NCBI GenBank assembly: GCA_963842085.1
Contig: CAWJET010000002.1
Span: forward strand, 1,024,001-1,088,000
From: an uncultured delta proteobacterium
Lineage (GTDB): Bacteria; Desulfobacterota; Binatia; Binatales; Binataceae
DNA length: 64,000 nt
Direction: 5' to 3'
The notes below the pieces were generated by a model. It searched no databases and was not told where the DNA came from. It saw only the letters and a list, made by a program, of their open reading frames with translations. Position 1 is the stretch's first letter, and each line of letters opens with the position of its first letter. Positions 4,672 to 26,349 of the stretch are shown here, one piece after another. The translations under genes were made by a program, and so were the position numbers.

Positions 4672-5961
4672 GTGCCCATTGTGACGATGCAGAGCGACGA
4701 TAAGCAGGGAAAAACACTCGCGATCCTGGTCGGCGGCGGTCCCGCGCCGGGAATCAACAGCGTGATCGCCGCGGCCGCCATTGAGGCGATCAAGTGCGGA
4801 CTCCGCGTCGTGGGCTTGCGTGACGGTTATCGGTGGCTCGTGGAGGGCGACACCGGGCACGTCGTCGAACTCGAACTCGAGGAGGTCAGCCGGATCCACT
4901 TCACCGGCGGTTCGATCCTGCGCACCTCGCGCACCAATCCGGCGCGCGACGAAGCGAGCCTGGGGCGGGTGATCGATGCGCTGACAGCGCTTGGCGTTCG
5001 CTACCTGATCTGTATCGGCGGCGACGACACCACGTACGGCGCGGCACGAATTGCCGAACGCACCAGAGGCAGGATTGGCATCGTGACGGTGCCCAAAACG
5101 ATCGACAACGATCTGCCCCTGCCTGAGAATGCGGCGACCTTCGGCTTCGAAACCGCTCGCGCTGTCGGCGCCGGAATCATCGAATCGCTGATGGAAGACG
5201 CCCGCACTACCAGCAGGTGGTATCTGACGATCTCGATGGGGCGGAAATCGGGATCGCTCGCGCTCAGTATGTGCAAGTCAGCCGGCGCCACGCTGGCGGT
5301 GATTCCCGAGGAATTTCCAGGCGAGAAGTTTGACCTCGCGCTGGTCGTGGACACTATCGTCGGCGCGATAATCAAGCGTCGAGCCGACGGCCACGACCAC
5401 GGCGTCGCGGTCATCGCCGAAGGGATCGCGGAGCGCATGGACGTTGGCACCCTGGCTTCGGCGCCGGGCTCGCAGGCTGACGCTTACGGCCACGTGCACA
5501 TCGCTGACATCCCGCTGGGTATTCTCTTGCGCGATCAGGTGCGTACGGCGCTCAAACAACTCGGCATCGATGCGACCGTGATCGCCAAGGACATCGGCTA
5601 CGAGTTGCGCTGCGCGAAGCCGTTGCCATTCGACATCGATTACACGCGAACGCTGGGCTACGGCGCGGTCCGCCACTTGTTAAGCGGTGGCTCCGGCGTG
5701 CTGATCGCCATCGCGGGCGGCCGCGTAACGCCGGTCAATTTCGAGCAACTGCTCGACCCGAACACAGGCCGGATTCGCGTGCGGACAGTGGATGTCTCCA
5801 CTGAATCATACCAGGTGGCGCGCTCTTACATGATTCGGCTCGAGCTCCAGGACTTCGAGGAGCCGATGCTGTCGAGGCTCGCCGAACACGCCAAGCTCTC
5901 GGCCGCCGCCTTCAAGGCGAGATTCCTGCCTTCGGTCGGCGCCGCGACTCATGGGAGCTGA
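4672..5961 (+). CDS. pfp: Pyrophosphate-dependent 6-phosphofructokinase
   Basis: GGGPAPGIN, GGDDT (Asp typical of PPi-type enzymes), PKTIDND, MGR, GYELR; start may be ATG 4687. Confidence 0.88.
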   Translation: MPIVTMQSDDKQGKTLAILVGGGPAPGINSVIAAAAIEAIKCGLRVVGLRDGYRWLVEGDTGHVVELELEEVSRIHFTGGSILRTSRTNPARDEASLGRVIDALTALGVRYLICIGGDDTTYGAARIAERTRGRIGIVTVPKTIDNDLPLPENAATFGFETARAVGAGIIESLMEDARTTSRWYLTISMGRKSGSLALSMCKSAGATLAVIPEEFPGEKFDLALVVDTIVGAIIKRRADGHDHGVAVIAEGIAERMDVGTLASAPGSQADAYGHVHIADIPLGILLRDQVRTALKQLGIDATVIAKDIGYELRCAKPLPFDIDYTRTLGYGAVRHLLSGGSGVLIAIAGGRVTPVNFEQLLDPNTGRIRVRTVDVSTESYQVARSYMIRLELQDFEEPMLSRLAEHAKLSAAAFKARFLPSVGAATHGS

Positions 5962-6201: not shown

Positions 6202-6825
6202 ATGACGGTAATAAAGCTGGCGGGCGGCGGCCTGTTTCTCCATTCGCCGACCAAGCTTGATGACGAAACCAAACAGGCGCTCGACGCAATCGGCGAGGTT
6301 CGTGCTGTCGTAGCGCCCTCGCGAGCCCATCACCTGTTCGTCGGCGACTACATCAAGGCGTGGCCCAACGCGAAGCTGTACGGACCGCCCGGCCTCGTCG
6401 GCGACATCGCGGATTTCCGCGCCCGCCTCGGTGCGCGACGCGATCTGAAACTCGACGCGGTTTTAGGCGACGAGCCTCAATCCGAATGGGCGGGCGAGAT
6501 CGACCAGCATCTGTTCAAAGGCGCGCCGCAGTTGAACGAGGTGGTGTTTTTTCACCGGCCGACCCGCTCCGCGATTTTCACCGATCTCGTTTTCAATGTG
6601 CCGGCGGATTTCAAAGACGCCCGAGTCTTCTATACGATCGTCGGCGCCCGCGGGCGCTTCGGACCTCATCTCCTGATTCGCCTGGCAATTCGCGACCACA
6701 AAGCCGCGCGCGAGTCCGTCGCGAAAATCCTCGAGTGGGACTTCGATCGAGTGATCCTAACGCACGGCGACGTGCTCGAATCCGGCGGCAAAGCAAAATT
6801 CGCTCAAGCGTTCTCATACCTGTGA
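6202..6825 (+). CDS. DUF4336-family protein (metallo-beta-lactamase-like fold)
   Basis: RMTVIKL..GGLFLHSP, AP...HHLF, EVVFFH...FTDL, WDFDRVILTHG; the reading frame extends upstream to ~6106 without a canonical start. Confidence 0.75.
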   Translation: MTVIKLAGGGLFLHSPTKLDDETKQALDAIGEVRAVVAPSRAHHLFVGDYIKAWPNAKLYGPPGLVGDIADFRARLGARRDLKLDAVLGDEPQSEWAGEIDQHLFKGAPQLNEVVFFHRPTRSAIFTDLVFNVPADFKDARVFYTIVGARGRFGPHLLIRLAIRDHKAARESVAKILEWDFDRVILTHGDVLESGGKAKFAQAFSYL

Positions 6826-6889
6826 ACGCGGGCCTCGAACGGGCGCGTTTGACAACAGTTTGACGATTGCGGAAAGTCCTACTCCGAGC

Positions 6890-7180
6890 ATGGTTGTGAA
6901 TTTCAAGATCGATCTACCGGACGACCTCTTCGACGCCCAGTTCACCGAGTCCGACTTCGCCGCGCGCGTCCGCGAGCTCGCCATCCTCGAACTGGTGCGC
7001 GTCAAGCGCCTGCACGAGCACGAGGCCAAGCAGATGCTTGCGCTGGAACGCTTCGAGCTGGTCGAGCGGATGAAGGCCGCGGGGATCGCGCCCACCGAGG
7101 ACGTCTTCGCCGAAATCAAAGGCGAGCTCACCAAAGCGATTGACTCCAGGCGCCGCAAACCGGAAAAACCAAAAGGATAA
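6890..7180 (+). CDS. UPF0175-family small protein (putative antitoxin-like)
   Basis: Size and pattern [11 protein letters not shown]...EAKQML.LERFE. Confidence 0.6.
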
Positions 7181-7184
7181 TCGC

Positions 7185-7568
7185 ATGCGCCTTTTGCACA
7201 CGATGCTCCGGGTCAACAACCTTGACGAGTCGCTCAAGTTCTACTGCGACAAACTCGGGATGAAACTCCTGCGCAAGCACGACTTCCCCGGCGGCGAGTT
7301 CACCCTCGCCTTCGTCGGCTACGGCGACGAGAAGGACAACGCGGTCATCGAGCTCACCTGGAATTGGGGCACCTCGAAGTACGAAATCGGCACCGCCTAC
7401 GGACACATCGCGCTCGGCGTCGACGACATCTACCAGACCTGCGCCGAGCTCAAGCAGAAAGGCGTCAACGTCGTGCGCGAGCCCGGCCCGATGAAGCACG
7501 GCACCACGCCCATCGCCTTCATCGAGGATCCCAACGGCTACAAGATCGAATTGATACAACAAAGGTAG
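7185..7568 (+). CDS. gloA: Lactoylglutathione lyase (glyoxalase I)
   Basis: [45 protein letters not shown]. Confidence 0.95.
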
Positions 7569-7615
7569 GCGCCGGCGGGTCCGTTCCCTCGCGCGTTCTG
7601 AAAGGTTCATTTGCG

Positions 7616-8644
7616 ATGAAAGCAGCAGTGTTCAGGAAAAGAGATGAGATGGCCGTCGTCGACCTGCCCGAACCCGTCGCCGGCGCCGGCGAGGTCGTGC
7701 TCAAGGTGCACAATTGCGGAATTTGCGGATCCGATCTGCACGCCGTCCAGTACGGAATCGGGATGCCGCCCGACACCGTGATGGGCCATGAATTCTGCGG
7801 CGAGATTCATTCGCTGGGCCCCGGCGTTAACGGCTACCAGCTCGGCGAGCGAGTCACCTCGCTGCCGTACTTCGCATGCGGCGTATGCTCATGGTGCAAG
7901 CGCGACGACGCGATGCACTGCTCGAAGCTCCGCAGCCTCGGTCTCGGCCAGCTCCCCGGTGCTTACGCCGAGTTCGTCGCATGCAGCGCCGCCAGCCTGC
8001 TCAAGCTGCCCGCCAACGTCAGCTCCCGCGCCGGCGCGCTCGTCGAGCCGCTTTCGGTCGGCCTTCATGGCGTGAACCACGCGTCGCTCGAACCGGGAAT
8101 GGGAGTAGTCGTGATGGGCGCGGGACCGATCGGCCTTTCGACCCTCATATGGGCCAAGGCCAAGGGCGCCAGCGCGGTCGTTGTGTCAGAGCTTGCGCCC
8201 GGCCGCACCGCGCTTGCGATGAAACTAGGCGCCAGCGCGGTCGTCAACCCGACCAGGGACGATCCCGCCGGCGCGGTCAATGCAATCACCGGACGCCCGC
8301 CCGAAGTCGTCTTCGAATGTATCGGCGTCAAGTCCACGCTCGGCACCGCCATCAGCATGGTCGGGCGTCACGGTCAAGTCGTCGTCATCGGCGTCTGCAT
8401 GGAGGCCGACAGCATCTACCCGCTGAGCTGCGTGATGAAAGAAGTGCGAATCGATTTCGCGCTCGCGTACACCCGCCGCGAATTCCAGCAGACCATCGAC
8501 GCGCTCTCCAACGGCGCTATCGACGCAACGCCAATGATCACCGACGTCATCAACGTCGACCAGGTGCCCGACATGTTCACCGCCCTGAAGCACCCCGGCA
8601 CCCGCGCCAAGGTGATGGTCGAATTCCCGCATTGCGGAAATTAG
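7616..8644 (+). CDS. Zn-dependent alcohol dehydrogenase (MDR family)
   Basis: CGICGSDLH, GHE, structural-Zn CxxCxxC...C, GAGPIG. Confidence 0.92.
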   Translation: MKAAVFRKRDEMAVVDLPEPVAGAGEVVLKVHNCGICGSDLHAVQYGIGMPPDTVMGHEFCGEIHSLGPGVNGYQLGERVTSLPYFACGVCSWCKRDDAMHCSKLRSLGLGQLPGAYAEFVACSAASLLKLPANVSSRAGALVEPLSVGLHGVNHASLEPGMGVVVMGAGPIGLSTLIWAKAKGASAVVVSELAPGRTALAMKLGASAVVNPTRDDPAGAVNAITGRPPEVVFECIGVKSTLGTAISMVGRHGQVVVIGVCMEADSIYPLSCVMKEVRIDFALAYTRREFQQTIDALSNGAIDATPMITDVINVDQVPDMFTALKHPGTRAKVMVEFPHCGN

Positions 8645-8673
8645 GCGGAACTCCCCGCGCGCCGACGAAATAG

Positions 8674-8704
8674 AAAAAGGCCGGATGACGATGCGTCCGG
8701 CCTT
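8674..8704 (-). terminator. Intrinsic terminator downstream of hppA (between convergent genes)
   Basis: AAGGCCGGACG-loop-CATCCGGCCTTTTT on the minus strand. Confidence 0.7.
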
Positions 8705-8732
8705 CGTAAAATCGCCAGGCGTGAAAGCCCAC

Positions 8733-11006
8733 TCAGGCGGCCTGCTTGGTCTCGATTGCCAGGCTCTCCTCCGCGATCGAGCCGCGCTTGGAGAAGGTTA
8801 CCGCGATCGCCAGTGCGACCAGCGCCAGCACCACGACCGCGACGCGCAGCACCGTCACGCCGCCGAGCGAAACCGTGGTGAACGGCGCCGCTAAAATCGA
8901 GACCAGGTTCATCACCTTGATCATCGGGTTCAGCGCCGGGCCGGCCGTGTCCTTGAACGGATCGCCGACCGTGTCGCCCACGACCGACGCCTTGTGCACG
9001 TCGGTGCCCTTGCCGCCGAGGAACCCGTCCTCGATCTTTTTCTTCGCGTTGTCCCAGTTGGCGCCCGCATTCGACATGAAGACCGCCATCAACTGGCCTG
9101 TCAGGATCGTGCCGCCGAGGAAACCGCCGAGCGCGCCCGCGCCGAGACCGAAGCCGACCAGCAGCGGCGAGAAAATCGCCAGGATTCCGGGGCCGAGCAA
9201 TTCCTTCTGCGACGCGGCCGTGACGATATCGACGCACGCGCCGTAGTCGGGCAGCTCCTTGCCCTCCATGATTCCCGGATGCGCGCGAAGCTGGCGGCGA
9301 ACCTCGAACACGATCTGATAGGCCGCGCGGCTGACCGCCTTAATCGCGAACGAGCTGAACAGAAACGGCACCGCGCCGCCGATCATCAGGCCGACGAACA
9401 CGGTCGGCATGTTGATCTGCACACCGAGCGCGCCGAGATGAGCCTCATCGATAAACGACCGGAACAGCGAGACGGCCGCGAGCACCGCGGTCGCAATCGC
9501 CAGGCCCTTGGTCAGCGCCTTGGTGGTGTTGCCGATCGCGTCCATCCACGACAGCGTCTTCGACGCCTCCTCCTGATGGATTCCGCCCATCTCGAAGATG
9601 CCGTGGGCGTTGTCGGTGATCGGCCCGTAGGTGTCCATCGCGAGGATGAACCCGGTGGTGGTGAGCAGGCCGAGCCCGGTCAGCGCGATTCCGTAAAACT
9701 GCAGCGCGAGCGAATCGTGGAAAATCGCCATCGCGCCGATGATCGCGGCTGCGATCACCAGCAGCGCCCAGACTGACGACTCGAGTCCCTCGGCCATGCC
9801 CGACAGGATCAATGTCGCCGGGCCGGTGCGCGCCGCCATCGCGGTTTCGGTGACCGGGCCTTTGTCCGGATGCGTAAAATAGTTCGTCAGCCACAGCGTC
9901 ACGACGGCGAGAATTATTCCGAGCGACGCGCAGCAGGCGAAGCGCCAATCGGTCGCGCCGGTGCGCGGATCGTCGAGGTAGAGATAATTCACGACGAAGA
10001 ATCCGATCACGGATGCGATCGCCGAGGTCATGTAGCCGATTGTGATCGGGCGCATCGGATCGAGCATCTTGCCGGCCGGCACGCGCACCGCCAGGATTCC
10101 GATGATCGAGGAAAACACGCCGACGCCGCGCAGGATCAGCGCGAACATGATGAGTTTGACCGCGAACATACCCGCGTACTGGCCATAGATGGCGATAAAG
10201 TCCGATTCCTGCAGCGCGTACGCCGCCAGGATGATCGCGGCGACCAGCGTCACCTCGTACGACTCGAACACGTCGGCCGCCATGCCGGCGCAGTCGCCGA
10301 CGTTGTCGCCGACGTTGTCGGCAATCGTCGCGGGATTGCGCGGGTCGTCTTCGGGCAGGTCCTGCTCGATCTTGCCGACCAGGTCGCCGCCGACGTCAGC
10401 GGCCTTGGTGTAGATGCCGCCGCCGACGCGCATGAAGAGGGCGGCCAGCGAGCCGCCGAAGCCGAAGCCGACCAGGACCTTCATCGCGTTTTCGCGGAAC
10501 ACCAGGAAGATGATCGTCGCGCCGAGCAGTCCCAGCCCGACCGTGAACATCCCCGACACTCCGCCCGCCTTGAATGCCAGTTCCATCGCGCCCTTGAAGC
10601 TGGTCAGCGCCGCGTTGGCGCTGCGGACGTTGGCCTTGACCGCCAGCCACATCCCGACGTAGCCGGCACTGTAGGACGCCGCGACGCCCATCAGGAATGC
10701 GATCGAGATTCCCAGCGGCAGGGTCAGGCCCTGATACACGTTGCGGTACATGAAGAACAACGCGATGAAGATGGCGGCGACGAACCAGATCATGGTTTTG
10801 ACCTGGCGTCCGAGGTACGCCATCGCGCCGAGTTCGATCGCGTCGGACACGTCGGTCATCGATTTGGGTCCGGGGTCGGCCGCCAGCACCACGCGTATCA
10901 GCATGACTCCGTAGCCCAGCGCGACCAGCGCCGAGACCAGCACCAGCCACAGGATCATCACCTGTCCGCTGGATAAAGTGGGCAGAACGATATTCGCTTC
11001 GCTCAT
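8733..11006 (-). CDS. hppA: Membrane H+-translocating pyrophosphatase, K+-independent type
   Basis: DVGGDLVGKIE, EDDPRNPA, DNVGDNVGD, DTVGDPFKDT; GNTTKA (Lys marks K+-independence). Confidence 0.95.
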   Translation of the reverse strand: MSEANIVLPTLSSGQVMILWLVLVSALVALGYGVMLIRVVLAADPGPKSMTDVSDAIELGAMAYLGRQVKTMIWFVAAIFIALFFMYRNVYQGLTLPLGISIAFLMGVAASYSAGYVGMWLAVKANVRSANAALTSFKGAMELAFKAGGVSGMFTVGLGLLGATIIFLVFRENAMKVLVGFGFGGSLAALFMRVGGGIYTKAADVGGDLVGKIEQDLPEDDPRNPATIADNVGDNVGDCAGMAADVFESYEVTLVAAIILAAYALQESDFIAIYGQYAGMFAVKLIMFALILRGVGVFSSIIGILAVRVPAGKMLDPMRPITIGYMTSAIASVIGFFVVNYLYLDDPRTGATDWRFACCASLGIILAVVTLWLTNYFTHPDKGPVTETAMAARTGPATLILSGMAEGLESSVWALLVIAAAIIGAMAIFHDSLALQFYGIALTGLGLLTTTGFILAMDTYGPITDNAHGIFEMGGIHQEEASKTLSWMDAIGNTTKALTKGLAIATAVLAAVSLFRSFIDEAHLGALGVQINMPTVFVGLMIGGAVPFLFSSFAIKAVSRAAYQIVFEVRRQLRAHPGIMEGKELPDYGACVDIVTAASQKELLGPGILAIFSPLLVGFGLGAGALGGFLGGTILTGQLMAVFMSNAGANWDNAKKKIEDGFLGGKGTDVHKASVVGDTVGDPFKDTAGPALNPMIKVMNLVSILAAPFTTVSLGGVTVLRVAVVVLALVALAIAVTFSKRGSIAEESLAIETKQAA

Positions 11007-13384: not shown

Positions 13385-14635
<1,251 letters not shown>

Positions 14636-17648: not shown

Positions 17649-17723
17649 GGGCGGTTAGCTCAGTGGTAGAGCATCGGCCTTACAAGCCGGGGGTCGCAGG
17701 TTCGAAACCTGCACCGCCCACCA
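17649..17723 (+). tRNA. tRNA-Val(TAC)
   Basis: Cloverleaf GGGCGGT..ACCGCCC ACCA, anticodon loop CTTACAA, GGTTCGAAA T-loop. Confidence 0.97.
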
Positions 17724-17728
17724 ATAAA
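17679..17728 (+). repeat. Left att core (3' half of tRNA-Val)
   Basis: Identical to 26180-26229. Confidence 0.95.
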
Positions 17729-17771
17729 ATCAAGCACTTACGCGATTGCGCTAACGGCGTTTCCGGCGTCA

Positions 17772-17789
17772 GTGCCAAATAGGTGCCAA
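17772..17789 (+). promoter_or_regulatory. Putative integrase arm-type sites (GTGCCAA x2)
   Basis: Same motif occurs three times at 26016-26047; both sets lie inside the att cores. Confidence 0.6.
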
Positions 17790-17915
17790 TTTTTTATCAA
17801 AAGCAGGGGCTAAAAGAGCCCTTGGTAGGGGTCGATTTTGTACCCAAGCTCGAGCCCAGATCGGGTGCACGAGGATGCAGTTTCACCGAAAATCAAAAAT
17901 GGAAACGGCTGGGAT

Positions 17916-17940
17916 CTGATCCGTCTGATCCGTCTAATCC
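17916..17940 (+). repeat. 9-bp iteron-like tandem repeat (CTGATCCGT)x2 + CTAATCC
   Basis: Inverted relative to the array at 25849-25877. Confidence 0.8.
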
Positions 17941-18021
17941 CCCGCAACCCCCAGGGGCGATGGTGACGGGACGACCTCAAAGAATCGTGCCGGGGGTAGC
18001 CCGTAGACCCCCACCCCCTCT

Positions 18022-18408
18022 ATGCTTTTTCGTCGCGCGCGCGGCGGCACGGCTCACGAATACAGTGGCGTCGACGTGGGAGTCTGCTTGCTTCGAGAAG
18101 GGGCGCCGAATCGAGCTTTTAGCGCTATGCTTCACAATCGCGAGCCGCGGCGCGGCGGGCGGATGGTCGATCTTATGCTGCAACCCGATTTCGATCCCAA
18201 GCCGAAAACTCTCCACATCTATCCGTGCGGCTACCTCTCGAAATGCAAGGCTCGGCGATGCTGGGAGCGCGCGACGCTGATCGCCGAGAAGGTTGACGGC
18301 GGCGGCCGGCACATTCGGCAGATCGAATTGTGCACGAAGCATGGCAACGTCGTTATCGCGCGCGAGCGGGCGCGCGGTCTAGAGATTTCTGATCGGCGGT
18401 TTGAATAG
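18022..18408 (+). CDS. Hypothetical Cys/His-containing protein (satellite cargo)
   Basis: ORF with CGYLSKCKARRC...LCTKH; true start may be a downstream ATG. Confidence 0.5.
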   Translation: MLFRRARGGTAHEYSGVDVGVCLLREGAPNRAFSAMLHNREPRRGGRMVDLMLQPDFDPKPKTLHIYPCGYLSKCKARRCWERATLIAEKVDGGGRHIRQIELCTKHGNVVIARERARGLEISDRRFE

Positions 18409-18539
18409 GGAACGGGCCAGCGAGGGAGGGGTGCCCATTTCGCCAGCCCGAACGCCGACTGGTCAAAAGGGAGGTAAACACACCAGCCAGCGATCCCATC
18501 CCTACTAAATCGGCGCGCGAGCGTCTATAAATCGGAACG

Positions 18540-18749
18540 ATGCGCTGTCAAAACGATTCGGCCAAAGGCGTTCACGAGCTAGAAATTTTCAACTTACGAC
18601 GGCGCCAGGCCTACCGCGAGCAGACCGGCATTTTCCATTTTGACGGCGAATGTAGGAGATGCTTCGCCTCGTATTGGCAGCACGGACAAGAGATCGTTTC
18701 TGAGCAGTGGAAGTTGCGCCCTGCTACTTGCGATTGCGGCTGCGCTTAA
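18540..18749 (+). CDS. Hypothetical small Cys-rich protein
   Basis: 69 aa with CRRC and CDCGC. Confidence 0.35.
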   Translation: MRCQNDSAKGVHELEIFNLRRRQAYREQTGIFHFDGECRRCFASYWQHGQEIVSEQWKLRPATCDCGCA

Positions 18750-18781
18750 ATTAAGAGATTCGCGACTTGAAATTCAGCCAC

Positions 18782-18937
18782 TCAGCACCGAATTGAGACA
18801 CTGCCGGCGGGTGAACTTCCGGCTTGCGCGGCCTTGTTCTTCTCGCGCTGCAGCTTGCGGGCCTGCTTTCGCTCGCGCTTCAGCCGGCGCGCCATTTCGG
18901 CCAGTTCGTGCTGCGATCCGCGCGTTCGCGTGCTCAC
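18782..18937 (-). CDS. Small basic hypothetical protein (51 aa, not in ORF track)
   Basis: GTG overlaps the upstream stop (GTGA); MSTRTRGSQHELAEMARRLKRERKQARKLQREK... Confidence 0.5.
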   Translation of the reverse strand: MSTRTRGSQHELAEMARRLKRERKQARKLQREKNKAAQAGSSPAGSVSIRC

Positions 18938-19368
18938 GACAACCGCCGCCCGTCGGCTTTCGCCTCGGGCGCGTCGACAACTTCCGCATCGTCTACCGAG
19001 TGGATCAGCTGTTCGAAGACATCCTGGTTGCGCGGTCGTGCCGCTGAAAACGACAACGGCGTGAGCAGCAGTTCTCTTTCGTGTGCGAGCAAAGTCTGTC
19101 CAAGGCGCCGAATTGCGTCTGTAACCCCGCGCGGGTTGCCGAGCTCGTCGATCAGGCCGCGCTCGCGGGCGCTCGCGATCAAACCATCGAACACGACGGA
19201 CAAAGAACAGTACCTCTTGAGCGTCAGTGAAAACTCAGGCTTGTCCAACCAGCCGGCCGATCGTTTGAGAGAGCGCGCGCGCCTGCGGATTCGTTCATCA
19301 CGTCGTTTCGCGACTGCCCTGCGCGACACGGGCGCCGGCGTAGCCGTATCGGTGGGGTCGCCGTTCAT
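18934..19368 (-). CDS. Putative terminase small subunit (P27-family-like)
   Basis: Pattern L..YC......ARERGLI..GNP.....L..ERELLLTPLS resembles the P27 TerS signature ending ELGLTP.SR. Confidence 0.55.
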   Translation of the reverse strand: MNGDPTDTATPAPVSRRAVAKRRDERIRRRARSLKRSAGWLDKPEFSLTLKRYCSLSVVFDGLIASARERGLIDELGNPRGVTDAIRRLGQTLLAHERELLLTPLSFSAARPRNQDVFEQLIHSVDDAEVVDAPEAKADGRRLS

Positions 19369-19595
19369 TCGAGTCTCGCAACTACGTCTTTCAGCTTCGC
19401 GAGCGCCTGGGCGCGGCGCGCGTCTAGTCGCCGCTGTAACTCGAGCTGCTCGACGCGCGGTAGCCGGCCGAACTTTTCGAACAACGCCGCAACAATCCGC
19501 ACATACTCGCTGTCGTCCGCCACGTGCAACGCCGTGGCAAAAGCCCGATCGAGACGATCTACCTCGTTATCGAGACTATCTGCGTTTTGTGCCAT
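19365..19595 (-). CDS. Hypothetical protein (satellite operon)
   Basis: GAGG RBS before MAQNADSL; ATGA overlap with the next gene. Confidence 0.6.
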   Translation of the reverse strand: MAQNADSLDNEVDRLDRAFATALHVADDSEYVRIVAALFEKFGRLPRVEQLELQRRLDARRAQALAKLKDVVARLE

Positions 19596-19694
19596 ATAAC
19601 GTTCCTCTCTTTGAATCCGCCGGCGCGGGCGTGATGCCCTTGGGTCGAGGCGGAGAACCGCAACCAGGCACCACAACCCGCAGCCGGCGAAACC

Positions 19695-20162
19695 TTAGGT
19701 AAGCGAGCCGTAGTGCTTCTCGCGCACGACTTCGCCTTTGTCGTTGATGTAACTGATGCCGCTCGGATGAATAACTGCCTTAACCTGGCCAGCCGGCGCC
19801 CGGCCGTAGCCGCCGTGAATTGTCGGCTTGTAGGGGGGGCGTGGGCCCGACGCGGGAATTTCGGCGCAGATTTTCAACATAGCCTGCGCGATCTGGTTGC
19901 CAGCACCTACGCTGACCAACGCGAGCAGCTTTTCCGCGGCGCCATCAAGTAGTTGACGCGCAGCGGGCGCAAAGTGCGGGTTTTCGCTGACGAGCCCGCC
20001 GATCCGTCTCAGACCTTCGCGCAGCGCGCCGAGCGCATCTCGTGCCGCAGCGCGCTCGAGCAGTGTGTCCGCGTATTCCGTGAATAGGTCGAGCGCCGTC
20101 GCCGGAGCGGGTTGTTCGTCGGTTCCGTTGCTTTTCGTCGGTTCATCTCCTGGGGTGTTCAT
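19695..20162 (-). CDS. Hypothetical protein (satellite operon)
   Basis: ATGA coupling with the upstream small ORF. Confidence 0.65.
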   Translation of the reverse strand: MNTPGDEPTKSNGTDEQPAPATALDLFTEYADTLLERAAARDALGALREGLRRIGGLVSENPHFAPAARQLLDGAAEKLLALVSVGAGNQIAQAMLKICAEIPASGPRPPYKPTIHGGYGRAPAGQVKAVIHPSGISYINDKGEVVREKHYGSLT

Positions 20163-20338
20163 CGATAATCCCTCTCAATTCTTTTGATCACCGCGCGCAT
20201 TCTGGCGTTCGCTTCACTCTCGCTGAGCTTCGGATCGCGCAGAACTCCTGCGTCCGGCGAGATGGGTGTTTCGTAGCGCCTCAACTTCTCTTTCAGCGCG
20301 GCGTTTTCAGTTCTCAGTGCTTCTATGTCGTCGGCCAT
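20159..20338 (-). CDS. Small coiled-coil hypothetical protein (59 aa, not in ORF track)
   Basis: AAGGAG RBS; MADDIEALRTENAALKEKLRRYE...; stop overlaps the next ATG. Confidence 0.65.
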   Translation of the reverse strand: MADDIEALRTENAALKEKLRRYETPISPDAGVLRDPKLSESEANARMRAVIKRIERDYR

Positions 20339-20401
20339 TTTCGTTGTCTCCTTGTCTCCTTGTTTGAATTCAGTTTTTGAGCCTTCCTAGCCATCGCACC
20401 G

Positions 20402-20710
20402 CTAGAACCGCACCTGAGCGCGGCAGGGGCCGGCCTTTTCGATCGTAATGTACTCGCGCGTAACTCCAGTAATTCGATCATCACGGCCGAGTTTTGAAAT
20501 TAGGCCCGACGCGCCCCACAGCCGTGCGCGATCCCAGCCGAAGTTTAACGCGCAACGCTCGACTGCCCCTATTTCAGCGACACTTACGAGGCTTCGCCCA
20601 TACCGGCAAGCCCAGGAAACGATATCCGAGGGTATTTCGAACGATGGGAGGTCTTCAAAAAAGACGCGTGGCATTTTTTTTGCTCCTGTGCGCTGTATCG
20701 CCCTATGCAT
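20402..20710 (-). CDS. Hypothetical protein (satellite operon)
   Basis: Starts directly after the stop of the upstream gene. Confidence 0.55.
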   Translation of the reverse strand: MHRAIQRTGAKKMPRVFFEDLPSFEIPSDIVSWACRYGRSLVSVAEIGAVERCALNFGWDRARLWGASGLISKLGRDDRITGVTREYITIEKAGPCRAQVRF

Positions 20711-21121
20711 TCAGTTGATCGGGTGAAACTGGATGGAGGTTAGAATAAAGCGGAGGGCCGAGTAACAGACTTTCGAGCCGCAGAGCACTTTATTGCCGCT
20801 GATCCAGTATCGGCTGGCGCCGCATTTGGGGCATGGAGGGAATTGGTGATCCTGTACCGCGAGCCTTGCTACGTCGGCCGCGGGTCGGAAAGTCGCCTCG
20901 ACGATTTTTCCATCAGCGCGCCAGCCGGCGCGGTCACTGTCGGACCGTTCGTCGGCCGGGCTGGCGAGCAGACTTAGCAAAGCGGATTTGTGGGTGCGGA
21001 CTTTCTCGACCAGCGCGACCGTCAACCGGTCTTTGGGGGCAACGTAGATATTACCGTTGGGGCGCCGCTCGATCCGGATGCCCAGCGCGTTTAGTTCATC
21101 GAGCACAGTTTGCGCGGTCAT
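20711..21121 (-). CDS. TubC-N-like docking-domain protein with C-terminal Cys cluster
   Basis: LDEL..LGIRI.....L...L.E.VR.HKSALLSLL; CPKC...C...C; coupled to the primase gene. Confidence 0.6.
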   Translation of the reverse strand: MTAQTVLDELNALGIRIERRPNGNIYVAPKDRLTVALVEKVRTHKSALLSLLASPADERSDSDRAGWRADGKIVEATFRPAADVARLAVQDHQFPPCPKCGASRYWISGNKVLCGSKVCYSALRFILTSIQFHPIN

Positions 21122-23622
21122 ACTTCAACTCCTTCGGCAGTTTCCGGTCGCGCTGCCGCGCCGTCGACTTTGACGATGCGCCACGTGCCGGTCTTATGGG
21201 ATTCGAAATCGCCCCGCATCAGGCGCAAGTTGCCGACGATTCGATCGGCGTGGTTTCTGCACCATCCGGCGAGCCGGCGGTTGTCGATTTTCTGCGGGTT
21301 GTTCCGCGCCGCCGCTACATCGAGCAGCGACTGTCGCAAGTTTGATTCGGCAGTTCCTTCCGTTGCCGACTCCGCGCAACCGACCACCTCGCGCAACAAC
21401 AGCATCCGATCAGCAAATAGATCGGCCCAAGCGCGCAAGACGGCTGTCGTCGATTGGCGGTCAGGGTCGAGAAGGGAAATTCTCTCCCGGGTCGCAACAG
21501 GATCAGCGCCGCTCGCCCACACAAGCGCGCTACGAACCCAATCAGACCATTCCTCGAAGCGGCCGTAGGGGCGGAGCCCCTGATCGGGCATCCCGGCGCG
21601 GGAATATGCTTTCAGGATCGTGAGCGCGGCCTGTACGAGGCGGGGCCGTTCTCGCCGAACGTGGGCGCGCAGATCGGCAATGACGAAGTTTCGCTCTTCG
21701 GGCTTTTCGCATCGCGGATCGATCCTGCAAACGATCGCACGGCTGGCCAGGTCGCCGGCAAATACGAGATTGTTGGCCGTGCACAACCACAAAAGATTTG
21801 TCGGAAGTTGTGGGCGTTCGTTTTTTCCCAGTAGGCGATCAGCGAACACAGGTTGCGTCACGATCATTGCGAGCGCGTCACTTCGCATCGCGCGGGTGAT
21901 GTTGTCGATGTTCGCAACCAGGTCGCCCGCCAATAAGATCGAAGTAAGGCGTTTTCGAAGCTCCTCGCTATTGCCCCCAAGCGGCATCGACGCGACAACA
22001 CGGCCCGTTAATATGATCGCGATACAGTCGGCGAGTAGGCTTTTACCGCTTCCCGGCGTGGGTGCGTCCAATCCGATGATCGGTGCGGCCGCCAGCTGCC
22101 GACGCACTAAGCCAGTGAGTATGCCGGACACAATCACGCTGCGATCCGCTGCGCTGACAAATGGAAATTCGGCGATCGGTGCGGTCAGTAGCGCGAGCGC
22201 GCTCTCTGCATCGGCGTGAGTAGCTTGTTCAGGGACGGGAAGCCAGTTCTCGCGCGAATATAGAAACAACCCGCTGGCAAGATCATAGCCCGGCGATTCG
22301 ATCATCCTACCGTCCGGCATGATCGTGGGCGCCTCGATCACTCCGGTAAGAACTGGCAACTTCCAATGTCCCGCCCGGGCAAGATAGCTTGCGGCAACTT
22401 TTGGCGGGCAATCTTCGGAAACAAAATCTCCCCTGCGGTTGCGCCTGTGCCAATTGATCGCGCGCGAGAAGGTGTCTTCAAGCGCGATCGAATCCATTGG
22501 CTTCAGCATTACGGCGCCATTCGGTCGCCGGATTGATTTGCGATCATCCGACGGATCGATTTCGACGACACGCACGACGATCCCGCTCCGTTGGAACAGT
22601 CCCCATCGCCGATGATCGAGAATTATTTTTTCGGCGAGATCGATCATCCAAGGGCGGCGGCCAGCCACAATTTCGATCCTCGGCCGGCCGTCGTTTTTGT
22701 AGGTTTTGTAAGCACGGATGACGATCTTTTTCGCTGCATCGCTTGGAAAGCTCGGAACGCACTTCCCGGCGGCTTCCAGGCACGCTTGAATCGCAACCTT
22801 CCGAGCGGTGTTCGTGGCTCGGAATGAGCAAGCCGCGCGAAAAATCTGATCGTTGCGCGCGCCCTCGGGGACGCCGCTTAAGGCGCGGAGAAGATCGAAC
22901 CCTGTTGGCTTGTCGTTCCCCTCGCCGCCGGTCGTGTGCGGTCGGTCTTCGTTGGTCTTGTCGCGCAGCCGTTCGACCAGCGGCGCCGGGAGCTCTGCAA
23001 TCGGCGTCTCGGTGATCTGGTGGCCGACTTCCCAGACATATTCTCCGCCGGTGAAATGTCGGCTGGGAGGCGCGATCACGTACCCGCCAGCCGATTTCAC
23101 GTCGACGCCGGGGCCGAGCGCGTTGCTGCGCGACGGCACGCGGACACCGGCTGGCAGACGATAATAAACATGAGGGCCGCCGGAGCCGCTGAGTGCCTGC
23201 GCGGTATCATCATTGATGTTCAGTTCTGTCTTGAGCTCCGCCCACGTTGAATCACCGGCGGCGCGCAGGTCAACGTCAATCACCACCACCCCCGACGGCT
23301 CACAGGCGATCGCGATATTCCATTCAGGATGGGACTTCCACCAGCGTGTTATTGAAGCCCGATCGATGGTTGCATCCTTCAGGCCGTGTAGGGTGGCGGG
23401 GTGCTTACCGGGATGCTCGCAGGCCGAATCGCTGCATGTGCAGATGGGCGCACGTTTACCATCTCGCTCGACGTAGAGGATTCCGTGACCGGGGAAAACA
23501 TAGAAGCCGTGCGCCGCGTACCATAGAGCGCAAGTTAGGTGCCTATCGTGCTTTCCCCGCTCCTTCTCCGAGCTACGCCGCTCGCCACGAGGGGGGTGCG
23601 CGGCGGACTCAGTTCCGTTCAT
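21118..23622 (-). CDS. Bifunctional DNA primase/polymerase (Prim-Pol + PriCT) fused to a P-loop helicase-like domain
   Basis: GKHP..HGLKDAT, WNIAI, VIDVD, GPHVYY, GGYVIAPPS.H; G.RN; Walker A APTPGSGKS and IDN. Confidence 0.88.
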   Translation of the reverse strand: MNGTESAAHPPRGERRSSEKERGKHDRHLTCALWYAAHGFYVFPGHGILYVERDGKRAPICTCSDSACEHPGKHPATLHGLKDATIDRASITRWWKSHPEWNIAIACEPSGVVVIDVDLRAAGDSTWAELKTELNINDDTAQALSGSGGPHVYYRLPAGVRVPSRSNALGPGVDVKSAGGYVIAPPSRHFTGGEYVWEVGHQITETPIAELPAPLVERLRDKTNEDRPHTTGGEGNDKPTGFDLLRALSGVPEGARNDQIFRAACSFRATNTARKVAIQACLEAAGKCVPSFPSDAAKKIVIRAYKTYKNDGRPRIEIVAGRRPWMIDLAEKIILDHRRWGLFQRSGIVVRVVEIDPSDDRKSIRRPNGAVMLKPMDSIALEDTFSRAINWHRRNRRGDFVSEDCPPKVAASYLARAGHWKLPVLTGVIEAPTIMPDGRMIESPGYDLASGLFLYSRENWLPVPEQATHADAESALALLTAPIAEFPFVSAADRSVIVSGILTGLVRRQLAAAPIIGLDAPTPGSGKSLLADCIAIILTGRVVASMPLGGNSEELRKRLTSILLAGDLVANIDNITRAMRSDALAMIVTQPVFADRLLGKNERPQLPTNLLWLCTANNLVFAGDLASRAIVCRIDPRCEKPEERNFVIADLRAHVRRERPRLVQAALTILKAYSRAGMPDQGLRPYGRFEEWSDWVRSALVWASGADPVATRERISLLDPDRQSTTAVLRAWADLFADRMLLLREVVGCAESATEGTAESNLRQSLLDVAAARNNPQKIDNRRLAGWCRNHADRIVGNLRLMRGDFESHKTGTWRIVKVDGAAARPETAEGVEV

Positions 23623-23819
23623 CGCTCGCCGCCGCCCGCCAGATATTTTTCAAGCTCCGACGCCGAAATGAGAACGCGCCGGCCAGCGCGGATGATCGGA
23701 AGATGCCCGCGGTTGATCTCGAGTCTGACGAAGCCTTCAGAAACGCCGAGCGAATCCGCGATCTCGGCGACGCCGAACGCGCGCCGCGGCAGTCCCCCAT
23801 TCAAGTTTTTCTTCACCAT
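23619..23819 (-). CDS. Excisionase / AlpA-like winged-HTH protein
   Basis: AFGVAEIADSLGVSE....EINRGHL..IRAGRRVLI...LEKYL. Confidence 0.85.
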   Translation of the reverse strand: MVKKNLNGGLPRRAFGVAEIADSLGVSEGFVRLEINRGHLPIIRAGRRVLISASELEKYLAGGGER

Positions 23820-23872
23820 ATGTGACTAGTTTACTCGCAGTTGTGTCTGGTGCAACGTCGTGATAGGAATAA

Positions 23873-24760
23873 GTGTTGAAACGAAATGCAGCGATGTTTG
23901 AGGAGAAAGCGTTGCGCAAAAAACGACAGTCTAAAGCAAGAGCGTCCGGCCGCGGCCGTCCCGTTGAAGGCTTGATCACGTCCCTAGACCAGGGGACGCG
24001 CGAGGCCGACGCCGCTTATCGCCGTGTCGGGGGCACGCCGGCGGCACGCCTCACATGGCTCCTGGCTTTCGGGCCGTTGCGTAAGCGCAGCCATGCGAAG
24101 GAGAGCGAGCGGCGGCGGCGGGCGACCTCGCTTGAGCTCTATGCGTTCTGCATCGGTCAGCGCGGCAGCATGAGGCGCAGCCGCGCCACGACTCTAGCCG
24201 GCGGAGAATTCGAGGAACTCGCCTCGAAGATTACCCAGGCGCTGAGGGACTTGGCCGCTGGCCGCCCTTGGGAGCTCAAAGCGGCGGACACTCCCGACTT
24301 GACGCGCCGGCTGTTGCTTCGCGGCGACATTTCCCGCATCGGCTTAACGCTCCCGGTGTTGCTTCGCGCCGGGATTTCCCGCGAGGATGCGACCGGGCTA
24401 AGTCGGGGCGCAACTTCGATCTACGACGGCCCCCTGCCGCAAATGTTCCTATGGTCGGTTGCTGATTTCATCGCGGTTGACGGTTCCCTGCTGGCAACTT
24501 GCGCGTACAAGAAATGCGGCAAGCTCATGGTGCACATAGGTGATCGGCGCCCGCGCGAATACTGCTCAAAGCGGTGTTCGCTGCTTGAACGCACACGACG
24601 CTACCGATCGACACATTCAAAAGAACAGCTATCCGCAGTTCGTCATGAACTATATCGCCGTGCAGTTGAGAGAGAGCATGGCCGCACCGTCGCCAAGCGC
24701 GTGAGGCGCCGCTTGCACGAACAAAATAGCAGTCCGGTCATTTTTGAATTGGAGGAATGA
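23873..24760 (+). CDS. CGNR-type zinc-finger protein, putative regulator
   Basis: CAYKKC...REYCSKRC...RTRRYR; divergent from the excisionase and ATGA-coupled to the integrase. Confidence 0.6.
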   Translation: MLKRNAAMFEEKALRKKRQSKARASGRGRPVEGLITSLDQGTREADAAYRRVGGTPAARLTWLLAFGPLRKRSHAKESERRRRATSLELYAFCIGQRGSMRRSRATTLAGGEFEELASKITQALRDLAAGRPWELKAADTPDLTRRLLLRGDISRIGLTLPVLLRAGISREDATGLSRGATSIYDGPLPQMFLWSVADFIAVDGSLLATCAYKKCGKLMVHIGDRRPREYCSKRCSLLERTRRYRSTHSKEQLSAVRHELYRRAVEREHGRTVAKRVRRRLHEQNSSPVIFELEE

Positions 24761-25812
24761 TCATGAGCCGAGTTTTTCAACGTAGCGGGTCTGGGTCGTG
24801 GTGGATTGATTTCTCCGACGCGCAGGGAATCCGCCATCGGCGCAAGATCGGGCCTTCAAAGCGTGTCGCCAAGGAAGTGCTCGACGGTATTTTGGGAAGC
24901 GTCGCCCGCTGTCAGCACCTCGGGATCGTCGCGGAATCAGCCGTCTCGTTTAATGACTTCGCCGAACTCTGGAAACAACGCGTCACCCCGACACTCCGCC
25001 CTCACACACAAACACGATGGTTCGGCATCATTGAAAATCACCTAAAGCCGCTCTTCGTGGGCGCCCTGCGCTCGATTACCAGTAGCGCAGTGGAAGGCTA
25101 CGCGGCTCGCCGTCTGGAAGCCGGGGCCAACCCGCAAACTGTGAATCGCGAGCTCAGCGTGCTGCGACACATGATCAAACGAGCGGTTCGATGGGAGTAC
25201 TTGACCCGTGATCCGGTCGGTACGTGGCCGTTTTCGAAAGAGACTAGCTTCGGCCGCGCGCGCTTCCTCACGGAAGAGGAAATCCCGCGCCTACTCGCCG
25301 CTTGCGAAGATTCGCGCTCGCCCTACCTCAAGGCGTTTGTAATCGTCGCGCTCAATAGCGGGATGCGCAGGGGCGAAATTTTGAGCCTCACCCGAAAATC
25401 GATCGACTGGCAAAATTCGAGCGCAACGCTCGAATTGACCAAAAACGGCGACACCCGGCACGTCCCGTTGAATAGCGCCGCCGTCGACGCGCTACGCTCG
25501 CTGCCAGCCCGCCTCGATGGCGGCCGCCTGTTCCCATTCAAGGATGACCATAGTGTGAGTCGTGCCTTCCGCCGTGCCGTAGAACGCGCAAACATCGAGG
25601 ACTTCCGCCTTCACGATCTCCGGCATACCTTCGCGAGCTACCATGCGATGGCCGGCGTTCAGGGCCGTGGCTTGCAATCGCTGCTCGGACACCGCGACGC
25701 CCGCATGACGATGCGCTACTCGCACCTGTCCGACGGCTACCTGCGCGCGGCCGTCGATAGCGTCGTGCTCGGAGCCGCCGCACCCGCCGAGCGGCCCGCC
25801 AAAGCGAAGTAA
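24757..25812 (+). CDS. int: Tyrosine recombinase (integrase)
   Basis: SGMRRGE (R), TKNG (K), HDLRH (HxxR), LLGH, MRYSH (Y). Confidence 0.95.
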   Translation: MIMSRVFQRSGSGSWWIDFSDAQGIRHRRKIGPSKRVAKEVLDGILGSVARCQHLGIVAESAVSFNDFAELWKQRVTPTLRPHTQTRWFGIIENHLKPLFVGALRSITSSAVEGYAARRLEAGANPQTVNRELSVLRHMIKRAVRWEYLTRDPVGTWPFSKETSFGRARFLTEEEIPRLLAACEDSRSPYLKAFVIVALNSGMRRGEILSLTRKSIDWQNSSATLELTKNGDTRHVPLNSAAVDALRSLPARLDGGRLFPFKDDHSVSRAFRRAVERANIEDFRLHDLRHTFASYHAMAGVQGRGLQSLLGHRDARMTMRYSHLSDGYLRAAVDSVVLGAAAPAERPAKAK

Positions 25813-25848
25813 CACCGCGCCGCCAGCTCGGTCGCCCAAGACCATAAA

Positions 25849-25980
25849 AGACGGATCAGACGGATCAGACGGATCAGTTTCCCGCTCTAAACATTTTCAG
25901 TTTTCTGGGATCACTACACACACCTTCTACTCACCTCGAATTTTTACAAACATGATCCTTCCCGTGATCCGTGTGATCCC
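25849..25980. repeat. Iteron-like array (AGACGGATC)x3, AT-rich spacer, opposed TGATCC repeats; candidate replication origin
   Basis: Repeats read directly at 25849-25877 and 25953-25980. Confidence 0.7.
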
Positions 25981-26015: not shown

Positions 26016-26047
26016 TGGTGCCAAACTGGTGCCAACTTTGGTGCCAA
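26016..26047 (+). promoter_or_regulatory. Putative integrase arm-type sites (TGGTGCCAA x3)
   Basis: Direct repeats at 26016, 26027 and 26039. Confidence 0.6.
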
Positions 26048-26179
26048 AATAGCGCCACAATAGGGTCGCACTCAGTGATACTCGATAGCATTAGACGCGT
26101 GAGAAAACCCTTGCGGCCGTGTGGGATTCTGGCGATTAACCGCGGCATTGCTGAGTGATCCAAACCCCTACTTTTCGTT

Positions 26180-26229
26180 CTTACAAGCCGGGGGTCGCAG
26201 GTTCGAAACCTGCACCGCCCACCAATAAA
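26180..26229 (+). repeat. Right att core (duplicated tRNA-Val 3' half)
   Basis: Identical to 17679-17728. Confidence 0.95.
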
Positions 26230-26349
26230 TTCAACCAGTTAGGCAGCAGGTCTGATCGCCGCGATTCAGACAGCCGTCGACGGGTTCATTTCATTGCCGC
26301 CAACCTCGCACGCTGAATTTGCGGAACGTTCCGGCAAGTTGGCTGCCAT

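Follow-up and report, generated by a model that had tools for sequence, protein, structure and literature searches.

Nine-bp repeat arrays on both sides of attP in a small tRNA-Val island: a possible self-contained replication origin with an accessory half-site

The analysed window is a 64-kb stretch of DNA from an uncultured delta proteobacterium of the Binataceae (assembly GCA_963842085.1, contig CAWJET010000002.1, positions 1,024,001 to 1,088,000), and the subject of this study is an 8.5 kb island within it, whose two ends carry arrays of short 9-bp repeats that are considered here as candidate binding sites (iterons) of the island's own replication protein, Rep. Unless a locus code is given, all coordinates are positions in the 64-kb window. 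The island is inserted in a tRNA-Val(tac) gene (17649-17723, forward strand, ARAGORN), between 50-nt direct repeats: the attL core (17679-17728), which is the 3' part of the tRNA, and the identical attR core (26180-26229), which duplicates it, the limits of both being approximate and read from the sequence. The 50-nt identical run sits in a 70-nt direct repeat, D1, at 91% (17674-17743 / 26175-26244). The island bounds assumed in an earlier note on this DNA are correct.

Rep (834 aa; 21118-23622, reverse strand) comprises a Prim-Pol domain, a superfamily 3 (SF3)/D5-type helicase and a C-terminal winged-helix-like domain, as seen with Pfam, AlphaFold2, Foldseek and VIA. On the same strand lies a 66-aa HTH_17 protein (23619-23819; Pfam HTH_17, E 1.4e-9; PHROG 66 'excisionase and transcriptional regulator'), a candidate excisionase or AlpA-like regulator. 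Divergent from this HTH_17/rep operon and upstream of the integrase gene is an open reading frame of 295 aa without family, ORF-X (23873-24760, forward strand, from the ORF list), for which Pfam gave a sub-threshold match to zf-CGNR only; a homologue at the equal position in the related island L082 is weak (25%), and the ORFs found at that position in the islands L080 and L081 are 35% identical to each other, with no match to ORF-X of the window. Its place is that of the master repressor in maps of Staphylococcus aureus pathogenicity islands (SaPI) and phage-inducible chromosomal islands (PICI), so that, by position only, a repressor role might be suggested. The tyrosine integrase (351 aa; 24757-25812, forward strand) matches Pfam Phage_integrase (E 2.5e-32) and PHROG 1. 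The gene set of PICIs and satellites is present, namely int, a repressor-side gene, a divergent xis/alpA-like gene, pri-rep and a specific att site, and the element, probably integrative and self-replicating, is organised like a phage satellite or PICI.

Three 9-bp arrays surround the attachment sites, all found by repeat search. R1 (25849-25877, forward strand) begins 37 nt past the int stop codon and consists of three perfect copies of AGACGGATC, while R2 (25953-25980, forward strand; repeat families D2 and D6) is opposed to R1 and holds three imperfect iterons with a TGATCC core. The left array, L (17916-17942, forward strand), has two perfect copies of CTGATCCGT and a degenerate third one, in the orientation of R2 and inverted to R1. 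The 75-nt spacer between R1 and R2 (25878-25952) has a G+C content of 38.7%, vs. 59.8% for the island, and contains a (CA)n tract, which makes it a candidate melting region; L is bordered by an A/T-rich flank (17883-17915, 42% G+C) resembling the R1 flank in inverted form. R1 and L share an inverted repeat of 21 nt at 100% (17915-17935 / 25849-25869), lying in a wider inverted repeat, I1, of 58 nt at 76% (17883-17940 / 25853-25910), in which both A/T-rich flanks are included. From R1 to L, the distance is ~8 kb in the integrated form and ~540 bp in the circle. Much of this had been anticipated in the earlier note, which read R1 (25849-25877) as the reverse complement of L (17916-17940), described the att-facing flanks as alike, saw further TGATCC copies at 25953-25980 and estimated the two distances at ~8 kb and ~0.55 kb: the features are all present there, the flanks fall inside the 58-nt inverted repeat and the additional TGATCC copies are real.

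R1 and R2 have the arrangement of a SaPI/PICI origin, i.e. opposed iteron sets (3 + 3, with R2 imperfect) across a 75-nt A/T-rich spacer. The usual position, 3' of rep, is not the one found, since no array lies near the rep 3' end (21118) in the window. Similar spacers, combining a motif of the TTTTC type with a tract of (CA)n/(TG)n, also occur in L080 and L099.

Exact copies of TGATCCGT number seven in the 64-kb window, and six of the seven are inside L, R1 and R2. When one mismatch is tolerated, there are as many copies as expected from shuffling, and the non-random feature is therefore the clustering of exact copies. At the level of the 4.93-Mb genome, 135 period-9 arrays of at least three copies were counted (a background of 0.27 arrays per 10 kb), 25 of them with an inverted partner less than 15 kb away; all but two of the inverted pairs were judged to be G+C-rich low-complexity sequence, the real pairs being that of the window's island and that of one other element.

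An exact copy of the 17-nt double iteron was also found on another contig (G000:C1:1012056-1012072; L011 ~1498-1520), in an intergenic position upstream of a small gene and with no island around it; the number of exact chance matches expected per genome is estimated at ~6e-4. A metagenome scan with the same 17 nt returned at least 120 hits, and no relative of Rep, Int, HTH_17 or ORF-X is encoded at any of the 80 loci whose DNA was retrieved. These hits, considered as a co-variation test, were rejected as unrelated tandem arrays.

A second repeat family, overlooked in the earlier note, lies between the 9-bp arrays and the core. Repeat search and homologue loci delineate two GGTGCCAA-type repeats at 11-bp phase in the left arm (17771-17789, forward strand) and three GGTGCCAA repeats plus a degenerate one, at 11-12-bp phase, in the right arm (26017-26060, forward strand). 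The integrase was searched in 165 genomes of the same order, and the DNA downstream of int was read in 29 loci: GGTGCCA/TGGCACC pairs, 10-12 nt apart and at most 700 nt downstream of int, are present in 26 of them. Both ends were recovered for 12 elements (window, L080-L083, L088, L092, L094-L097 and L099), and the layout of 2 + 3-4 repeats on both arms occurs in all 12. In L108, the integrase of which belongs to an unrelated family, different arm repeats, TTGTGCGGGT, occupy the same position. Because they are conserved with the integrase family, and because L108's other integrase comes with another repeat, the GGTGCCAA repeats are likely the arm-type sites of the integrase.

Could the 9-bp arrays themselves be integrase arm-type sites? 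They are found in both attP arms and inverted, as arm sites can be. Conservation with the integrase, observed for GGTGCCAA in 26 of the 29 loci, is however not a property of the 9-bp words, which differ completely between integrases that are 59-70% identical, and seven of the 12 elements mapped at both ends have no 9-bp arrays at att. As far as these comparisons go, the integrase can for practical purposes be excluded as the binder of the arrays, the chance that it does bind them appearing negligible. The reading of the arrays as iterons in the earlier note is supported here, the likely integrase sites being this other, family-conserved repeat. Between the right arm sites and the core, a CGAGT-type tandem repeat was also noticed (26069-26089), similar ACCGAGT repeats occupying the same place in other elements of the window's integrase family; this is where sites of the excisionase (HTH_17) might be expected.

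The complete order, from the int stop to R1, spacer, R2, arm sites, core, arm sites and L, is common to the window and to three whole islands, L080 (at tRNA-Glu), L081 and L082 (both at tRNA-Val). Their integrases are 59-70% identical to that of the window, and their 9-bp words are unrelated: AGACGGATC in the window, AGTGACAGA in L080, GGAGACGAT in L081 and an 11-nt word in L082. As for the 12 elements mapped at both ends, arrays are present on both sides of attP in four (window, L080, L081 and L082) and on the integrase side only in one (L092), the remaining seven having none at att. L080 keeps a left array with an R1-like flank in two copies (inverted repeats of 71 nt and 54 nt at 82%), L081 also keeps a left array with an R1-like flank, and the array of L082 has five to six copies on the left and one on the right. 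Outside this integrase family, L108, located at another tRNA, has three perfect iterons immediately beyond the arm sites on each side of attP, the two sets being inverted to each other. In both L108 and L235, the int stop is directly followed by a weaker opposed array, and L108 was consequently dropped as a pure case of one array per side. On the integrase side alone, opposed arrays around an A/T-rich spacer are thus seen in the window, L080, L081, L108 and L235.

The conservation of both arrays in homologous elements, proposed as a check in the earlier note, is borne out by the left array, which is kept in layout in L080, L081, L082 and L108; because of this, the left array is probably functional. 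The arrangement of a putative origin against attP and a half-site beyond it is found together with two integrase families and three types of replicase. Two further observations were made on these relatives. L082 (G002:C46) contains a large terminase gene (7396-8781) and a DnaB-like helicase, and the integrase family therefore spans satellite-like to more phage-like elements. In L080, 250 nt of the island match, at 82% identity, a segment located beyond attR (6819-7066 vs. 14325-14572, oriented); a related element or remnant may adjoin the island, as tandem islands.

If the words do not follow the integrase, a second comparison can be centred on the replicase. The helicase module H1 was defined as Rep residues 313-834, and 14 loci of the same order were picked by H1 similarity. 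Period-9 arrays of at least three copies were found in 12 of these 14 mutually related loci: at the rep 3' end in seven (L099, L103, L104, L105, L107, L109 and L110), adjoining int or att in four (window, L106, L108 and L235) and elsewhere in one (L232). The array of L107 was missed by the strict scan and found by eye only. The two loci without arrays, L233 and L234, are both cut by contig ends, and one of them has a broken rep. In other phyla, opposed 9-bp arrays directly follow rep in three of eight loci with H1 homologues. The widest array spacing among the relatives is that of L008, ~430 bp.

L099, which belongs to the window's integrase family, has its array module at the rep 3' end, far from att: three 9-bp iterons, a spacer of ~115 nt with a (CA)n/(TG)n tract and four opposed iterons. 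As read from the sequence, the TTTTC-type flank accompanies one of its two arrays only. Since L099 is built in this manner, an array with a flank paired with an array without one, as in R1/R2, appears to be a normal complete module.

The replicases themselves are mosaics. That of the window joins Prim-Pol to H1, that of L099 joins DUF3854 to H1 (45% identical), those of L080 and L081 combine DUF3854 with another helicase module, and L082 has a DnaB-like helicase. No BLASTP match between the L080/L081 helicase module and the window's Rep was obtained at E 1e-5, and only chance-level ones at E 10; in the hhalign comparison of the helicase alignment with the L080 Rep, the match is carried by shared DUF3854 rows. 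Since L080 and L081 have the layout with another helicase, the 9-bp layout is not bound to one helicase family. More generally, most, though not all, of the elements examined with an int adjoining a tRNA carry a replicase-type gene (Toprim, DUF3631, DUF5906, DUF3987, HTH_36 or DUF3854).

The word GTGAG(TT) is common to five of the H1-chosen elements, L099, L103, L104, L105 and L109, located at tRNA-Glu, Arg, Ser, Pro and Arg, respectively. Rep is the sole gene that these five have in common, at 49-88% identity, while their Int proteins are at most 35% identical, with no Int match in L105. When the words were compared with the C-terminal wing of Rep (alignment A2), the wing 'IRRA..WRV' was found to correspond to GTGAG, 'AH[AG]G..WQ[VI]V' to a TGGTG core and 'TQGVARWRV' to GGTGGGTT; the TGGTG core was predicted for L107 and L026/L235, and then found there. 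The window's Rep has a distinct wing and a distinct word. The 9-bp arrays are accordingly likely to be Rep iterons because their words follow the replicase and not the integrase, because the same word is present in elements sharing only Rep, and because the word tracks the wing.

These same five elements bear on another possibility, namely that the arrays bind HTH_17 or ORF-X, as a small regulator or recombination-directionality factor, and control excision or transcription at both ends. The arrays do sit in the attP region, and Int, the ORF at the ORF-X position and HTH_17 make up the one module shared by the window's island, L080, L081 and L082, four islands with att arrays. Moreover, the Xis protein of Tn916 binds both transposon ends, and small winged-helix excisionase proteins could well form a filament on three 9-bp sites arranged head to tail. 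Against this, the HTH_17 proteins of the four islands are 42-65% identical and their words unrelated; GTGAGTT recurs in five elements, of which L109 only has a match to the window's HTH_17, and none of the other four has a match to the ORF that L099 carries at the ORF-X position. The arrays of most relatives are at the rep 3' end and not near att, those of the window are outside the arm sites and not between arm and core, the region in which directionality factors usually act and in which the CGAGT-type repeat sits, and no iteron-like word is present in the divergent promoter region 23819-23873. A regulator as the binder consequently appears improbable.

Two other loci of the same genome deserve mention. 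L106 (G000:C2:1167633-1171901), ~120 kb from the island, has an H1 module that is 45% identical and a different integrase (27%), the stop codon of which is directly followed by three copies of GTCACCACA; no att repeat or tRNA was found in L106, and it may be a remnant. L231 (6916-10474; G000:C1:586915-590473) encodes a DUF3987 replicase-type protein, then an integrase to which an HTH_17 domain is fused; its opposed arrays of 9 bp, TTTAGCAGG, are located one inside the 3' part of the DUF3987 gene and one just after it.

Concerning the Rep protein, its Prim-Pol domain is assigned by Pfam (E 1e-41), and residues 313-834 gave an AlphaFold2 model with a pLDDT (predicted local distance difference test) of 94. 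Foldseek matches of this model include the NrS-1 helicase region, SaPI PriRep1 with double-stranded DNA, the African swine fever virus PrimPol, SCCmec Cch and SaPI5 PriRep, while a search of the Rep sequence against solved structures gave no hit at E ≤ 1. Residues ~743-818 are modelled as three helices and a beta-hairpin (pLDDT 83 when modelled alone), and their VIA matches (Z 4.6-5.7) are nearly all winged-helix domains, so that the model is consistent with, and not proof of, a C-terminal winged helix. In SaPI Reps, iterons are bound by such a C-terminal winged helix (bioRxiv 10.64898/2026.10.17.759575), and PMC4889955 describes one in the same role in P4 gp-alpha and the D5 family.

H1 has 172 homologues with E ≤ 1e-10. 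In soil-metagenome proteins, it was observed fused to many primase domains (Prim-Pol, DUF3854, Toprim, a DnaG-type zinc finger and RepB-like), which amounts to large-scale domain shuffling. The records of the relatives are named Candidatus Binataceae, and the host lineage appears to be a soil group.

Taken together, the anatomy of the repeats, the way they are conserved, their association with Rep and their lack of dependence on Int, all of which are observed, favour a reading to which we assign a probability of roughly 0.6: the 9-bp arrays would be Rep iterons, R1, spacer and R2 a self-contained origin, and L an accessory Rep site. Rep binding, origin function and the role of L are deduced from sequence comparison. 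The attP region would accordingly carry two layers of repeats. The inner layer, GGTGCCAA in 2 + 3-4 copies, would serve the heterobivalent tyrosine integrase, and the outer layer, made of the 9-bp TGATCCGTC words, would be recognised by the island's Rep through its C-terminal winged-helix domain. An origin of the SaPI/PICI type would be made up of R1, the A/T-rich spacer of 75 nt and R2 in opposed orientation, with a Rep hexamer thought to load on each side, and this origin would have been displaced from the usual location directly 3' of rep into the interval that separates int from attP. L and its A/T-rich flank would represent an extra, inverted R1 half-site beyond attP, most likely an accessory site for Rep through which initiation is boosted or controlled after circle formation.

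Several points weigh against this reading. The copies in R2 are degenerate, matching at 7, 8 and 7 of their 9 positions and interrupted by an insertion of 3 nt, and R1 and L make a better inverted pair than R1 and R2. On the protein side, the isolated C-terminal domain has no significant Foldseek match (none at E ≤ 0.001, the best being at E 0.08), and VIA Z values of 5-6 are in a range common for the tool. The word of the window does not resemble those of the other Rep relatives, all of the GGTG type, L080 and L081 share the 9-bp layout and yet have a different helicase module, the counts over the H1-chosen loci are not independent, and the link between Rep and the arrays is one of association. 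Finally, four soil-metagenome runs contain the island as short contigs, broken at the att core, with no sign of circles or of extra copies, neither of which such contigs can show; no attP or empty-site joint is listed and the depth of the island is not above that of its flanks, features that these contigs are likewise unable to reveal.

The first two points favour a true split origin, in which the R1/L pair, or R1, R2 and L together, would function only after excision joins the ends, with no firing in the chromosome. The R1/L pair is the best conserved opposed pair and its 58-nt inverted repeat takes in both A/T-rich flanks; L080 and L081 both retain a left array whose flank resembles that of R1, the left copies outnumber the right one in L082 and the perfect iterons of L108 face each other across attP. 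Furthermore, the ~540 bp between R1 and L in the circle are of the same order as the widest spacing among relatives (~430 bp in L008). Opposed arrays and an A/T-rich spacer are nevertheless present on the integrase side alone in five elements, self-contained two-array modules occur far from att in seven of the 14 loci of the order and in three loci of other phyla, and the flanked and unflanked arrays of L099 form a complete module. A strictly split origin is hence regarded as a tentative second choice, with odds well below even. The split origin suggested in the earlier note is upheld in one respect, arrays on both sides of attP recurring in L080, L081, L082 and L108; as to assembly across attP, none seems needed, R1 and R2 being opposed around a 75-nt spacer of 38.7% G+C. 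The alternative that the same note offered, a self-contained origin at 25849-25980 with the left array as a second Rep-binding site, fits the evidence, including the relatives with self-contained modules at the rep 3' end.

Were the Rep half-site L and its melting flank needed for full firing, which we likewise consider doubtful, origin and attP would be interleaved by design in this group of small tRNA-targeting replicons; integration would dismantle the origin and excision rebuild it, as a cis-acting licence by which replication strictly follows excision. In a bolder variant, Rep bound to R1 and L may bridge attL and attR and aid excision.

The satellite-like organisation of the element also raises the question of whether the arrays could be a packaging signal, at which a terminase would bind as at pac or cos. 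Packaging sites rich in repeats are known to occur close to att, and the related island L082 encodes a large terminase. In the island of the window, on the other hand, no terminase or capsid gene was found with Pfam and PHROGs, the words follow Rep and no packaging gene, and the layout fits origins, so that a packaging function seems very improbable.

Small ORFs on both strands between 18022 and 21121 are without significant matches (no Pfam match above the curated threshold, no PHROG match), and promoter and terminator scans of both island ends yielded nothing beyond chance. A motif, CTATGC-pyrimidine-TTTTCG, was observed ~75 nt inside the left array, in the window (~18015-18035) and in L081 (~5590-5610, oriented coordinates); it may be a promoter for the left-end genes that the consensus promoter scan missed.

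Returning to the reading of a self-contained origin with an accessory half-site, the iteron origin of a primase-helicase replicon is known, and the novelty would lie in the location of the origin next to attP and in the conserved half-site on the far side of it. Among the titles and abstracts searched, none describes an origin that attP divides, which is no proof of absence. The coupling of replication to excision in integrated replicons, and the way in which they keep their origin silent in the chromosome, are usually explained by gene regulation, and origin parts on both sides of attP would, if the case were confirmed, provide a purely architectural coupling. With three defined arrays, one Rep and one attP, the element is a clean test case. 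Two rules of reading are suggested: the core-proximal repeats of small tRNA islands belong with the integrase and an outer layer may belong with the replicase, and the iteron word may be readable from the wing of the Rep C-terminal domain. The association of H1 with many primase domains also points to a wide, little-studied family of self-replicating islands in soil bacteria.

Among known systems, satellite phage P4 offers a comparison for the left array. Its ori and crr are iteron clusters set apart from each other and recognised by a single protein, and one of the two is an accessory cis site; in the circle, kilobases separate them, and they do not lie around attP. The window likewise has a second cluster, L, with a conserved layout. 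The P4 protein is also a primase-helicase with a C-terminal winged-helix origin-binding domain (PMC4889955, PMC10516667). Unlike that of the window, the P4 primase is of the DnaG type, and no sequence similarity between P4 and Rep was found, nor a solved-structure sequence hit at E ≤ 1.

With attP regions of the lambda type, the island shares direct repeats, here GGTGCCAA, at helical phase on both arms, which lie at 40-130 bp from the core and are conserved together with the integrase family; the 9-bp arrays differ in forming an additional, outer layer whose words are independent of the integrase. The SSV1-type integrase, whose gene is split by integration (PMC8371274), would be comparable under the split reading only, as a functional unit spanning attP that integration takes apart. 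There, a gene is split, whereas here it would be at most a cis-acting site, the integrase-side part of which looks complete.

The closest likeness is to the SaPI/PICI elements (SaPI5 PriRep5, SaPI1 PriRep1 and E. coli PICIs), which have the same fusion of primase, SF3 helicase and C-terminal winged-helix-like domain. Their origin rule (PMC6092414) is that two sets of iterons flank an A/T-rich region, and the short iterons of the window are similarly in two opposed sets around such a region; the same paper gives the gene arrangement found here, with int and its neighbour gene on one strand and an excisionase-like HTH gene and pri-rep on the other. The differences are that no packaging or interference genes were recognised in the window's island, that its iteron unit is a 9-bp tight tandem vs. 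words of 5-7 nt, that its putative origin lies ~4.7 kb from the rep 3' end, between int and attP, and that it possesses an extra iteron half-site beyond attP.

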